From Escherichia coli (GTDB lineage Bacteria; Pseudomonadota; Gammaproteobacteria; Enterobacterales; Enterobacteriaceae): DNA of 64,000 bases. Both the position numbers and the translations under genes were made by a program. Shown piece by piece: positions 1,607 to 38,119 of the stretch. The stretch lies in the NCBI RefSeq assembly GCF_013122565.1, contig NZ_CP053258.1. One strand, 5' to 3'. The first letter of the stretch is position 1. The number at the start of each line of letters is the position of its first letter. The notes under the pieces are model-generated. The model saw only the letters and a program-made list of their open reading frames with translations. It ran no database searches and was not told the origin of the DNA.

Positions 1607-1698
1607 GTGAGCGAGATCAAATTCTAAATCAGCAGGTTATTCAGTCGATAGTAACCCGCCCTCCGGGGATAGCAAGCATTTTTTGCAAAAAGGGGTAG

Positions 1699-1714
1699 AT
1701 GCAATCGGTTACGC
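1699..1714 (+). promoter_or_regulatory. Putative PurR operator overlapping the guaBA promoter
   Basis: gatgcaatcggttacg resembles the PurR box consensus ACGCAAACGTTTGCGT (about 11/16) and lies between the candidate -35 and -10; guaBA is a known PurR-regulon member. Confidence 0.4.
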
Positions 1715-1718
1715 TCTG

Positions 1719-1724
1719 TATAAT
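1719..1724 (+). promoter_or_regulatory. guaBA promoter -10 hexamer (TATAAT) with GC-rich discriminator
   Basis: Perfect TATAAT 44 bp upstream of the guaB ATG, followed by GC-rich gccgcggc typical of growth-rate-controlled promoters; the upstream region is A/T-rich (UP-element-like ttttttgcaaaaa). Confidence 0.55.
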
Positions 1725-1767
1725 GCCGCGGCAATATTTATTAACCACTCTGGTCGAGATATTGCCC

Positions 1768-3234
1768 ATGCTACGTATCGCTAAAGATGCTCTGACGTTT
1801 GACGACGTTCTCCTCGTTCCTGCTCATTCTACCGTTCTGCCGAATACTGCTGACCTCAGCACCCAGCTGACGAAAACTATTCGTCTGAATATCCCTATGC
1901 TTTCCGCAGCAATGGATACCGTAACGGAAGCGCGCCTGGCTATTGCTCTGGCTCAGGAAGGCGGTATCGGCTTTATCCACAAAAACATGTCCATTGAACG
2001 CCAGGCAGAAGAAGTTCGCCGTGTGAAAAAACACGAATCTGGTGTGGTGACTGACCCGCAGACTGTTCTGCCAACCACGACGCTGCGCGAAGTGAAAGAA
2101 CTGACCGAGCGTAACGGCTTTGCGGGCTACCCGGTCGTTACCGAAGAAAACGAACTGGTGGGTATTATCACCGGTCGTGACGTACGTTTTGTGACCGACC
2201 TGAACCAGCCGGTTAGCGTTTACATGACGCCGAAAGAGCGTCTGGTCACCGTGCGTGAAGGTGAAGCCCGTGAAGTGGTGCTGGCAAAAATGCACGAAAA
2301 ACGCGTTGAAAAAGCGCTGGTGGTTGATGACGAATTCCACCTGATCGGCATGATCACAGTGAAAGATTTCCAGAAAGCGGAACGTAAACCGAACGCCTGT
2401 AAAGACGAGCAAGGCCGTCTGCGTGTTGGTGCAGCGGTTGGCGCAGGTGCGGGTAACGAAGAGCGTGTTGATGCGCTGGTTGCCGCAGGTGTTGACGTTC
2501 TGCTGATCGACTCCTCTCACGGTCACTCTGAAGGCGTTCTGCAGCGTATCCGTGAAACCCGTGCTAAATATCCTGATCTGCAAATCATCGGCGGCAACGT
2601 GGCAACAGCTGCAGGTGCACGCGCTCTGGCAGAAGCTGGTTGCAGCGCGGTTAAAGTCGGTATCGGCCCTGGCTCTATCTGTACGACTCGTATCGTGACT
2701 GGCGTAGGTGTTCCGCAGATCACTGCCGTTGCTGACGCAGTTGAAGCGCTGGAAGGCACAGGTATTCCGGTTATCGCAGATGGTGGTATTCGCTTCTCCG
2801 GCGACATCGCCAAAGCTATCGCCGCTGGCGCAAGCGCGGTAATGGTGGGTTCCATGCTGGCGGGTACTGAAGAATCTCCGGGTGAAATTGAACTCTACCA
2901 GGGCCGTTCTTACAAATCTTACCGTGGTATGGGCTCTCTGGGTGCGATGTCCAAAGGTTCTTCTGACCGTTACTTCCAGAGTGACAACGCTGCCGACAAA
3001 CTGGTGCCGGAAGGTATCGAAGGTCGCGTAGCCTATAAAGGTCGCCTGAAAGAGATCATTCACCAGCAGATGGGCGGCCTGCGCTCCTGTATGGGCCTGA
3101 CCGGCTGTGGTACTATCGACGAACTGCGTACTAAAGCGGAGTTTGTACGTATCAGCGGTGCGGGCATTCAGGAAAGCCACGTTCACGACGTGACCATTAC
3201 TAAAGAGTCCCCGAACTACCGTCTGGGCTCCTGA
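1768..3234 (+). CDS. guaB: IMP dehydrogenase
   Basis: ORF 1699..3234 trimmed to the ATG at 1768 ([21 protein letters not shown]...); 488 aa; tandem CBS domains and catalytic [10 protein letters not shown] loop recognisable. Confidence 0.95.
1973..1981 (+). promoter_or_regulatory. Consensus DnaA box (TTATCCACA) inside the 5' part of guaB
   Basis: Exact 9-mer TTATCCACA about 205 nt into the guaB coding sequence; gua operon regulation by DnaA is reported in the literature. Confidence 0.45.
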
Positions 3235-3302
3235 TTCTCTTCGCCCGACTTCATGTCGGGCGATTTATATTATCTGTTTCACTTGCCTCGGAATAAGCGT
3301 CA

Positions 3303-35413: not shown

Positions 35414-35985
35414 TACTTAACTCCATCCTGTTCATCATGTTGGGAATAATTGACGACGTTAATACTGCCTTGTGCATTGAGTTCTGTACATAGGGCTTTG
35501 AACGCTTGCTCAATATTTGCTGCGTCCGCAGATGCGGGGCTGTGGGCAGTAATCTGAATATGCAACTGCGCAGCCCGTTCATTTTCAGCAGGTTGTGTGC
35601 GCGACACCAGCTCCGCAATGTTCATATGATGCGCGTCGAAAAGTGCTGTGAAGCGTTCAATTAAATGCGGGGAGTCTGCAACATCGACCTGAACCCAGAC
35701 AGATGCTGGCATTGGCGGACGCGGACGCGCCGTCGTGCGCTTCATCACGATTAAAAGATCCAGTTCGGCACCTTTCAACGGTAACGTTGATTCAATCAGA
35801 GTAATGGCATTCCATGAACCGGAAAGCAGCATGATAAACGTGAACTCTTCTCCCAGCATCGCCAGGCGACTGTCTTCAATATTACAGCCGCAACTACTGA
35901 CATGACGGGTGATGGTGTTCACAATTCCAGGGCGATCGGCACCCAACGCAGTGATCACCAGATAATGTTGCGATGACAGTGTCAA
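35413..35985 (-). CDS. gcvR: Glycine cleavage system transcriptional repressor (tandem ACT domains)
   Basis: ORF 35413..36051 trimmed to a TTG at 35985 (MTLSSQHYLVITALGADRPGIVN...) to give the 190-aa GcvR I recall; AAGGA RBS upstream. Confidence 0.85.
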   Translation of the reverse strand: MTLSSQHYLVITALGADRPGIVNTITRHVSSCGCNIEDSRLAMLGEEFTFIMLLSGSWNAITLIESTLPLKGAELDLLIVMKRTTARPRPPMPASVWVQVDVADSPHLIERFTALFDAHHMNIAELVSRTQPAENERAAQLHIQITAHSPASADAANIEQAFKALCTELNAQGSINVVNYSQHDEQDGVK

Positions 35986-36130
35986 ACTGGTTATTCCTTT
36001 AAGGGGTGAGTTGTTCTTAAGGAAAGCATAAAAAAAACATGCATACAACAATCAGAACGGTTCTGTCTGCTTGCTTTTAATGCCATACCAAACGTACCAT
36101 TGAGACACTTGTTTGCACAGAGGATGGCCC

Positions 36131-37009
36131 ATGTTCACGGGAAGTATTGTCGCGATTGTTACTCCGATGGATGAAAAAGGTAATGTCTGTCGGGCTAGCT
36201 TGAAAAAACTGATTGATTATCATGTCGCCAGCGGTACTTCGGCGATCGTTTCTGTTGGCACCACTGGCGAGTCCGCTACCTTAAATCATGACGAACATGC
36301 TGATGTGGTGATGATGACGCTGGAGCTGGCTGACGGGCGCATTCCGGTGATTGCCGGAACCGGCGCTAACGCTACTGCGGAAGCCATTAGCCTGACGCAG
36401 CGCTTCAATGACAGCGGTATCGTCGGCTGCCTGACGGTAACCCCTTACTACAATCGTCCGTCGCAAGAAGGTTTGTATCAGCATTTCAAAGCCATCGCTG
36501 AGCATACTGACCTGCCGCAAATTCTGTATAATGTGCCGTCCCGTACTGGCTGCGATCTGCTCCCGGAAACGGTGGGCCGTCTGGCGAAAGTAAAAAATAT
36601 TATCGGAATCAAAGAGGCAACAGGGAACTTAACGCGTGTAAACCAGATCAAAGAGCTGGTTTCAGATGATTTTGTTCTGCTGAGCGGCGATGATGCGAGC
36701 GCGCTGGACTTCATGCAATTAGGCGGTCATGGGGTTATTTCCGTTACGGCTAACGTCGCAGCGCGTGATATGGCCCAGATGTGCAAACTGGCAGCAGAAG
36801 GGCATTTTGCCGAGGCACGCGTTATTAATCAGCGTCTGATGCCATTACACAACAAACTATTTGTCGAACCCAATCCAATCCCGGTGAAATGGGCATGTAA
36901 GGAACTGGGTCTTGTGGCGACCGATACGCTGCGCCTGCCAATGACACCAATCACCGACAGTGGTCGTGAGACGGTCAGAGCGGCGCTTAAGCATGCCGGT
37001 TTGCTGTAA
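36131..37009 (+). CDS. dapA: 4-hydroxy-tetrahydrodipicolinate synthase
   Basis: ORF trimmed to [19 protein letters not shown]... (292 aa). Confidence 0.95.
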
Positions 37010-37025
37010 AGTTTAGGGAGATTTG

Positions 37026-38060
37026 ATGGCTTACTCTGTTCAAAAGTCGCGCCTGGCAAAGGTTGCGGGTGTTTCGCTTGTTTTATTGCTCGCTGCCTGT
37101 AGTTCTGACTCACGCTATAAGCGTCAGGTCAGTGGTGATGAAGCCTACCTGGAAGCGGCACCGCTTGCGGAGCTTCATGCCCCGGCTGGAATGATTTTGC
37201 CGGTGACCTCCGGTGATTATGCAATCCCGGTGACCAACGGTAGTGGTGCTGTCGGTAAGGCGCTGGACATTCGTCCACCAGCCCAGCCGCTGGCACTGGT
37301 TTCTGGCGCGCGTACCCAGTTCACGGGCGATACCGCTTCATTGCTGGTGGAAAATGGTCGTGGCAATACTCTGTGGCCGCAGGTGGTTAGCGTGCTGCAG
37401 GCGAAAAACTACACCATCACCCAACGTGATGATGCTGGTCAGACACTGACCACCGATTGGGTACAATGGAACCGTCTGGACGAAGACGAGCAGTATCGTG
37501 GTCGTTATCAAATCTCTGTTAAGCCGCAGGGTTATCAGCAGGCGGTTACGGTTAAACTGCTGAACCTGGAACAGGCGGGCAAACCGGTTGCAGACGCGGC
37601 TTCCATGCAGCGTTACAGCACGGAGATGATGAACGTTATTTCCGCCGGTCTGGATAAATCTGCCACTGACGCCGCGAACGCTGCGCAAAATCGTGCCTCC
37701 ACCACTATGGACGTACAAAGTGCAGCTGATGACACCGGTTTACCAATGCTGGTCGTACGCGGGCCGTTCAATGTGGTTTGGCAACGTCTGCCAGCGGCGC
37801 TGGAAAAAGTGGGCATGAAAGTGACCGACAGCACCCGTTCGCAGGGCAACATGGCCGTAACTTATAAGCCGCTGTCTGACAGCGACTGGCAGGAACTGGG
37901 CGCGAGCGATCCAGGCCTGGCATCCGGTGACTATAAACTGCAGGTTGGCGATTTAGATAACCGCAGCAGCCTACAGTTCATCGATCCGAAAGGTCATACT
38001 CTGACTCAGAGTCAGAACGACGCGCTGGTATCTGTCTTCCAGGCTGCGTTTAGCAAGTAA
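37026..38060 (+). CDS. bamC: Outer-membrane protein assembly factor BamC (lipoprotein)
   Basis: [27 protein letters not shown]... with lipobox LAAC; 344 aa; 16 bp after dapA (dapA-bamC operon). Confidence 0.94.
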
Positions 38061-38103
38061 AAATACAGGGCTGGAATCATCCGGCCCTTTTTTCTGATAT
38101 GAT

Positions 38104-38119
38104 ACGCAAACGTGTGCGT
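38104..38119 (+). promoter_or_regulatory. PurR operator upstream of purC
   Basis: acgcaaacgtgtgcgt matches the PurR box ACGCAAACGTTTGCGT at 15/16. Confidence 0.7.

Follow-up and report, generated by a model that had tools for sequence, protein, structure and literature searches.

Operators of the purine repressor PurR

We analysed a 64,000-nucleotide stretch of the Escherichia coli chromosome (contig NZ_CP053258.1 of assembly GCF_013122565.1; hereafter the window), which runs from xseA/guaBA to beyond purC, and concentrated on three 16-bp boxes in the promoters of guaBA, purMN and purC. These boxes are almost certainly operators of the purine repressor PurR. Our analysis supports this by their identity to sites bound by PurR in strain K-12, by their geometry relative to mapped start sites and by their evolutionary conservation, while the steric occlusion mechanism and the fold-repression values are inferred or derived from the literature. 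The three sites are already known as classical PurR operators, which have been footprinted, mapped by chromatin immunoprecipitation (ChIP) and curated, and there is no novelty in them. They belong to the best-characterised bacterial repressor-operator pairs and serve here as a positive control, in that the first-stage reader, who had only the sequence, recognised real operators. Beyond these sites, the window contains a fourth region bound by PurR in ChIP experiments and, inside uraA, a conserved motif of which the sources examined give no description. PurR operators at guaBA, purMN and purC, with purR-dependent repression, are said to have been reported by He and by Meng in 1990, and the repression again by Cho in 2011; the original footprinting papers are reportedly those of He, Meng and Tiedeman, all from 1990.

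The PUR box consensus that we used, ACGCAAACGTTTGCGT, is a 16-bp imperfect palindrome with a central CpG, and the central CG is present in all three boxes. Consensus matches number 15 of 16 for purC, 14 of 16 for purM and 11 of 16 for gua. Self-complementary positions follow the same order (14/16, 12/16 and 8/16), and the inner 12 bp of the purM box form a perfect palindrome. The purC and purM boxes are fairly called near-perfect and the gua box only loosely palindromic, in agreement with the preliminary description of the window, which had named palindromes at all three promoters, identified the genes and the divergent purM/upp pair correctly and placed the purC box exactly. All three 16-mers are present, with two corrections. 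The purM box lies at 14705-14720 and not at 14706-14721, a shift of 1 nt. For gua, the coordinates 1699-1714 were in the right register, but the string quoted with them, gatgcaatcggttacg, is not the box: it occupies 1698-1713, has 3/16 consensus matches and scores -19.9 bits.

Occupancy in K-12

The window is about 98.5% identical to, and collinear with, the K-12 chromosome. BLAST against MG1655 (NC_000913.3, 2,590,000-2,636,000) gave two collinear segments of 98.6% and 98.4% identity that cover window positions 381-45862 in reverse orientation, and in this alignment all boxes are identical in K-12. Nothing of substance distinguishes the operators of the two strains: guaBA, purMN and purC carry the same 16-mers, which differ neither in their position relative to genes and start sites nor in their genomic order, with about 1.5% of nucleotides differing elsewhere and the left 380 bp not collinear. 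A 1-kb xseA/guaB query is matched at 95-99% identity in 5425 of 5426 complete E. coli genomes.

PurR binding in K-12 was mapped by Cho 2011 (PMC3159470) using ChIP on microarrays (ChIP-chip) with and without adenine, and Table 1 of that study lists four regions inside this window. The motifs given there for purC, purM and gua are exact reverse complements of the window boxes, base for base, and all four motifs map to the window with a constant offset of 1978 bp between NC_000913.2 and NC_000913.3. The comparison with ChIP data proposed in the preliminary description is therefore positive for all three sites, and the enrichments (Table 1 of the present paper) follow its ordering of strong purM and purC sites and a weaker gua site. 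Its count of three PurR sites in the window was too low by one, as the perM/bepA region is bound in addition. The perM motif lies at +81..+96 of the perM start site (19922), within the coding sequence, and its matrix score is no better than expected by chance. At 19913-19927 a perfect inverted repeat of 6 bp, ATTGCG-GAT-CGCAAT, overlaps the same mapped start site. We rejected it as a PurR site owing to its low score and to half-sites that are wrongly oriented for PurR.

It is scarcely credible that the main protein bound to the boxes is not PurR but a LacI/GalR paralogue, for example RbsR or CytR, with a similar palindrome centred on CG. PurR is descended from RbsR and has retained a similar motif (Ravcheev 2014), and a central CG is common to all LacI-family sites. 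The ChIP-chip was, however, made with tagged PurR and gave an adenine-dependent signal (PMC3159470), and the downstream genes are those of purine biosynthesis. In addition, a multicopy clone of the purM-upp spacer titrates PurR, and deletion of the purM box abolishes this titration (PMC3266220).

Promoter geometry and proposed mechanism

Start sites were taken from Table S1 of Kim 2012 (PMC3415461), which contains experimental K-12 data, and their 51-nt upstream strings are identical to the window. The guaB start site, a G at 1731 (K-12 2,632,129; 1497 reads), puts the gua box at -32..-17, within the core promoter as the preliminary description had it. There the box overlaps both a weak -35-like hexamer (TAGATG) and the spacer that precedes a consensus TATAAT. 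The purM box is found at -35..-20 of a minus-strand start site at 14685 (K-12 2,619,175), and the purC box at -6..+10 of a start site at 38110 (K-12 2,595,803), which leaves a purC leader of 163 nt. PurR sites are generally located between the -35 and -10 elements (Cho 2011, PMC3159470). A scan for sigma-70 consensus promoters missed the guaB, purM and purC promoters, the reason being that their -35 hexamers are poor or that they belong to the extended -10 class.

In the mechanism that we propose, plentiful purines would lead to the binding of a PurR-corepressor dimer to each 16-bp box, PurR being a LacI-family purine repressor activated by hypoxanthine or guanine. The boxes overlap the footprint of RNA polymerase at the -35 hexamer and spacer in guaB, at the same region in purM, and at the -10 edge and start site in purC. 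Because each box overlaps this footprint, its occupancy would be expected to block transcription initiation, presumably by steric occlusion. Affinity and repression are likely to be strong at purC and purMN, with their near-consensus boxes. At guaBA repression is probably weak, as the box is degenerate and the promoter seems to be governed mainly by its UP element and growth-rate control, with further contributions from FIS, CRP and DnaA. An Rfam scan of the whole window returned zero RNA families, so no riboswitch or leader RNA offers itself as a competing explanation.

Matrix scan and chance expectation

For a quantitative comparison we built a PurR position weight matrix (PWM) from 24 ChIP-chip motifs in Table 1 of Cho 2011 (PMC3159470), the four in-window motifs being excluded, and scanned both strands of the 64 kb. 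The preliminary description had expected the three boxes to be the top three hits. This was not borne out, as they take ranks 1, 2-3 and 4, and the uraA motif shares ranks 2-3 with purM. In 300 dinucleotide-preserving shuffles, matches of at least the observed score are expected 0.07 times per window for purC, 0.20 times for purM and 0.69 times for gua; four matches of at least 15.05 bits, as seen here, correspond to a Poisson p of 0.005. Three of the top four matches are intergenic, though only 8% of the sequence is intergenic (p = 0.002). There are only three purine operons in the window, guaBA, purMN and purC, and for each of them a match scoring 15 bits or more lies no further than 170 bp from the start codon. 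Chance alone would produce this with a probability of about 0.0018 for one operon and about 6e-9 for the three jointly. It is location that makes the three-box observation non-random.

Conservation of the boxes

The conservation of the purM box was followed with one Upp-anchored scan of species-representative genomes, which yielded 80 Enterobacterales loci, 69 of them including the purM 5' end. The core of the box, TCGCAAACG[T/A]TTGC, is present in 67 of these 69 loci, 53-132 nt upstream of the purM start codon, and its range extends from Escherichia to Yersinia, Pantoea, Dickeya and Hafnia. In the 67 species an essentially invariant extended -10, cTGtTAGAATTGC, follows the box at a fixed spacing of 7 nt, and the sequence upstream of the box is unconserved. 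The pattern is that of a textbook phylogenetic footprint.

Orthologous purC and gua loci were retrieved via members of 90%-identity protein clusters. The purC box is invariant at 16/16 positions in six genera (Escherichia, Salmonella, Buttiauxella, Klebsiella, Cronobacter and Citrobacter), in a bamC-purC spacer of 57% mean column identity whose leader length differs by about 100 nt. The purC extended -10 does not share the conservation of its purM counterpart, and we rejected that proposal: TGnTATGAT is recognisable only in E. coli and Salmonella, with the E. coli element confirmed by the mapped start site. The purC leader contains a repetitive extragenic palindromic (REP)-like element, tcggataaggcgttcacgccgcatccga, at about 38160-38215, which has no alignment in Salmonella or the other four genera compared. 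The Salmonella leader is still long, and that of Buttiauxella, Klebsiella and Citrobacter is about 100 nt shorter.

The weak gua box

Several observations weigh against our interpretation, and most of them concern gua. A score of 15.05 bits is expected 0.69 times per window by chance, which means that by itself the gua score does not exceed chance, and the intragenic uraA and hyfD sites score equal to or nearly equal to the gua box. In the five genera compared, 12 of the 16 columns of the box are invariant, but the whole xseA-guaB spacer has 88% mean identity; as this identity is uniform, conservation cannot single out the box. For all three operators, the occupancy and repression data come from K-12, another strain, and purR itself lies outside the window. 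It is located about 0.9 Mb away in K-12, and from the species assignment we take PurR to be present in the source genome.

This raises the question whether the gua box is a chance resemblance in a dense, conserved promoter that is controlled by the UP element and growth rate, FIS, CRP and DnaA, with no direct role for PurR. Husnain and Thomas 2008 (PMC2885671) describe a 'putative' PurR site overlapping the guaB core promoter, together with a DnaA box, FIS sites, a CRP site at -117.5 and an UP element needed for growth-rate-dependent control. Besides this cautious wording, the chance-level score, the few self-complementary and consensus positions and the conservation, which is no better than that of the flanks, would fit a fortuitous match, as would a ChIP enrichment that is the lowest in the table of Cho 2011 (PMC3159470). 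However, a reproducible ChIP-chip peak under the adenine condition is centred on exactly this motif (PMC3159470), and genetic evidence for downregulation of guaB by PurR is cited in PMC2885671. Salmonella (ATGCAACCGATTACGT, 16.8 bits) and Cronobacter (14.6 bits) have substitutions with which the PurR score is maintained or rises, and to judge by these scores the substitutions are compatible with PurR binding. We consider a chance resemblance very improbable and retain the gua box as a PurR operator. The combination of weaker PurR control with growth-rate control, as suggested in the preliminary description, matches the literature (PMC2885671). The gua case also demonstrates that a matrix score alone fails to separate a functional operator from intragenic chance matches, for which position and occupancy data are needed.

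A conserved PurR-like motif within uraA

The only match rivalling the real operators is found inside uraA. This motif, GCGCAATCGTTGCCGT (reverse complement ACGGCAACGATTGCGC), has a score that rivals that of the purM operator and that varies between 16.3 and 17.7 bits according to whether the training motifs include the almost identical yieG site. It is identical at 15 of 16 positions to the yieG operator, whose ChIP enrichment of 2.08 is among the strongest, and the one difference, a C at the last position, is also seen in bound sites (PMC3159470). The uraA motif is the only item of our analysis with novelty potential, because of its unusual conservation at synonymous codon positions. Across the species examined the encoded peptide, GAIVAV, is invariant, so that 11 of the 16 bases are fixed, and of the 768 synonymous codings of this peptide the E. 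coli coding has the highest PurR score. The 16-mer is retained unchanged in 18-21 of 74-78 species, from the lineages Escherichia, Citrobacter, Kluyvera, Pseudocitrobacter, Enterobacter, Leclercia, Kosakonia and Phytobacter. Elsewhere, as in Yersinia, Pantoea and Dickeya among others, the motif is scrambled and scores less than 3 bits; in Yersinia, for example, codons 126-130 read GGGGCGATTGTGGCG and score -3.5 bits. The six-codon stretch is identical in 17 species, where per-species synonymous identity would predict 1.16. Among 424 such stretches it takes rank 8, and all seven above it overlap codons 1-7, the translation-initiation region, so that outside these codons the motif is the most conserved synonymous stretch of uraA. 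Two control intragenic PWM matches, at 16543 in uraA and at 17589 in hda, are kept in 0 species and 1 species, respectively. The hda match and that in hyfD (30493) were rejected as candidates, both being at chance level.

No PurR ChIP-chip peak is reported at the corresponding K-12 position (NC_000913.2, 2,617,791-806), in an experiment that did detect the intragenic purB site (PMC3159470), and the nearest peak, that of purMN, ends about 1 kb away. Our literature searches found neither a described PurR site in uraA nor relevant PurR ChIP-exo data. Intragenic sites make up less than 1% of LacI-family sites, purB being the PurR example (Ravcheev 2014). On the basis of its synonymous conservation, its top score among the possible codings and its resemblance to the yieG operator, the uraA motif could be a genuine PurR operator that acts internally like that of purB and is restricted to some of the Enterobacteriaceae, a possibility that we regard as doubtful and put forward tentatively. 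The candidate site, about 1.1 kb from the upp promoter, would then weakly block elongation through upp-uraA when purines are abundant.

If this were true, the operator would account for the published 2-fold PurR-dependent change in uraA mRNA. Uracil uptake would be coupled to purine status via a site that has gone unreported both in promoter-centred regulon reconstructions and in the 2011 ChIP-chip study. A functional site would also be the second case after purB of PurR acting inside a coding sequence, and a direct link from purines to pyrimidine salvage. The intragenic purB operator is said, in the 1992 work of He, Smith and Zalkin, to block elongating polymerase within the coding sequence. 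The uraA and perM motifs resemble it in lying inside a coding sequence, downstream of the promoter, and the roughly 2-fold PurR effect on uraA matches the weak regulation typical of a roadblock of the purB type. The three differ in their evidence: purB is ChIP-bound and experimentally validated, the uraA motif is without a reported peak, and the perM motif is ChIP-bound with a chance-level score.

The purM box and upp

The preliminary description also suggested that the purM box, lying in the divergent upp-purM spacer, could influence upp. As a shared bidirectional operator it would repress the divergent upp-uraA operon as well, which we consider improbable. A prediction by Ravcheev from 2002 reportedly places upp and uraA in the PurR regulon. 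Expression of uraA falls 17.6-fold with adenine and shows a 2.04-fold PurR-dependent effect, described as 'direct or indirect' (Cho 2011, PMC3159470), and a PurR site can have a weak effect from more than 200 bp upstream, prsA being an example (Ravcheev 2014). The geometry and the comparative data are nevertheless unsupportive. The box is centred at about -217 relative to the mapped start site of upp. The start codon of upp is 245 nt away from the box in Escherichia and about 154 nt away in most genera, whereas the purM -10 keeps a constant spacing from the box. Furthermore, 25 of the 80 loci have no purM within 600 bp of upp, and only 5 of these 25 show a match scoring at least 12 bits in the 450 bp before upp. 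Major control of upp by the purM box is unlikely. Given the 2.04-fold PurR-dependence of uraA, a weak distal effect on upp may still exist.

The purM-upp spacer has been described as containing FNR and PurR sites, and the multicopy spacer clone titrates FNR via a separate site near upp (PMC3266220). In Escherichia this spacer is 324 bp long, about 90-100 bp longer than in most Enterobacterales (about 225-240 bp), with the additional DNA situated between PurR box and upp promoter (window 14721-14870). The divergent arrangement is not universal, as purM and upp are non-adjacent in many species. This applies to many Citrobacter, Enterobacter, Raoultella and relatives (loci L005-L010, L013, L014, L018, L029-L033 and L037-L040, and likewise L043, L044, L047, L048, L051, L059 and L073, in the numbering of our scan), where about 1.9 kb separates the two genes or the 2.5-kb flank contains no purM.

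Comparison with related regulators

The operators of RbsR, CytR and LacI are, like those of PurR, palindromes of even length (about 16 bp) with CG at the centre, which are read by a helix-turn-helix and by minor-groove hinge helices. PurR differs from these regulators in its GCAAAC half-sites and in binding DNA only with a corepressor, hypoxanthine or guanine. Its targets are genes of nucleotide metabolism and not of sugar utilisation. The PurR of Bacillus subtilis and Lactococcus, with its PurBox, has the same role in purine-responsive control of pur genes. It is a non-homologous protein of the phosphoribosyltransferase type, which senses phosphoribosyl pyrophosphate and recognises a different DNA motif.

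Gene order and further features of the window

The coordinates of the boxes, promoters and genes are collected in Table 1. Annotation of guaB and guaA was transferred from E. coli LHM10-1 and K-12.

Table 1. PurR-related sites, promoter elements and genes of the window. ChIP columns give the K-12 motif and its log2 enrichment with / without adenine (PMC3159470); PWM columns give rank and score in bits.
Feature	Position	Strand	Sequence	PWM rank	PWM bits	ChIP motif	ChIP enrichment	Remarks
purC PurR operator	38104-38119	+	ACGCAAACGTGTGCGT	1	18.5	ACGCACACGTTTGCGT	2.08 / 1.52	
purMN PurR operator	14705-14720	-	AAGCAAACGTTTGCGA (purM strand: TCGCAAACGTTTGCTT)	2-3	16.9	TCGCAAACGTTTGCTT	2.08 / 0.98	ChIP region purM-purN
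gua PurR operator (PUR box)	1699-1714	+	ATGCAATCGGTTACGC	4	15.05	GCGTAACCGATTGCAT	0.84 / none	ChIP region guaB-guaA
uraA PurR-like motif	16054-16069	-	GCGCAATCGTTGCCGT (reverse complement: ACGGCAACGATTGCGC)	2-3	16.3-17.7			Codons 126-131 (GAIVAV); candidate, unproven
hyfD-internal match	30493			5	14.2			
perM/bepA (yfgO/yfgC) motif	20002-20017	+	CCGGAAGCGATTGCCT	6	13.7	CCGGAAGCGATTGCCT	1.18 / none	perM codons 16-21; ChIP region about 19683-20132
guaB core promoter	1720..1731	+	TATAAT					-10 at 1720-1725, GC-rich discriminator, start site 1731
guaB -35-like hexamer	1696-1701	+	TAGATG					A/T-rich UP-element region upstream
CRP-like site	1606-1621		TGTGAgcgagaTCAAA					Upstream of guaB promoter
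purM extended -10 promoter	14685..14700	-	cTGtTAGAAT					TAGAAT 14697-14692; 7-nt spacing from box; start site 14685
FNR-like site	14871-14884		TTGACTAAAGTCAA					Near upp promoter
upp promoter	14896..14929	+	TTGCCG-16-TATAAT					Start site G 14929, then T-run ATTTTTTTTG
bamC terminator hairpin	38067-38088							Terminator scan; just before purC extended -10
purC extended -10	38095..38103	+	TGaTATGAT					Immediately 5' of box; placed by mapped start site
xseA	230-1606	-						
guaB	1768-3234	+						Operon under gua operator
guaA	3303-4880	+						Operon under gua operator (1768..4880)
yfgI, yfgH, yfgG, pdeF, ppx, ppk								Between guaA and purN
purN and purM	12966-14641	-						purM GTG start at 14641
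upp	14966-15592	+						Divergent from purM
uraA	15678-16967	+						With upp; then hda
arsC and bepA	18281-19744	-						
perM (formerly yfgO)	19957-21018	+						
focB, hyf operon, bcp, gcvR, dapA, bamC								Between perM and purC
purC	38273-38986	+						Then ypfJ, tmcA and onward

Two minor observations concern the window itself and the databases used. Positions 1-380, which include the last ~150 nt of xseA, have no K-12 alignment. In K-12 xseA is followed by yfgJ, and in strain LHM10-1 a gene of about 8 kb for an 'adhesion domain-containing protein' abuts xseA at the left edge of the window. The 90%-identity cluster that holds the window GuaB (488 amino acids) also includes GuaA (525 amino acids) and has a representative of 525 amino acids; this co-clustering is apparently a database clustering artefact and not a feature of the locus.

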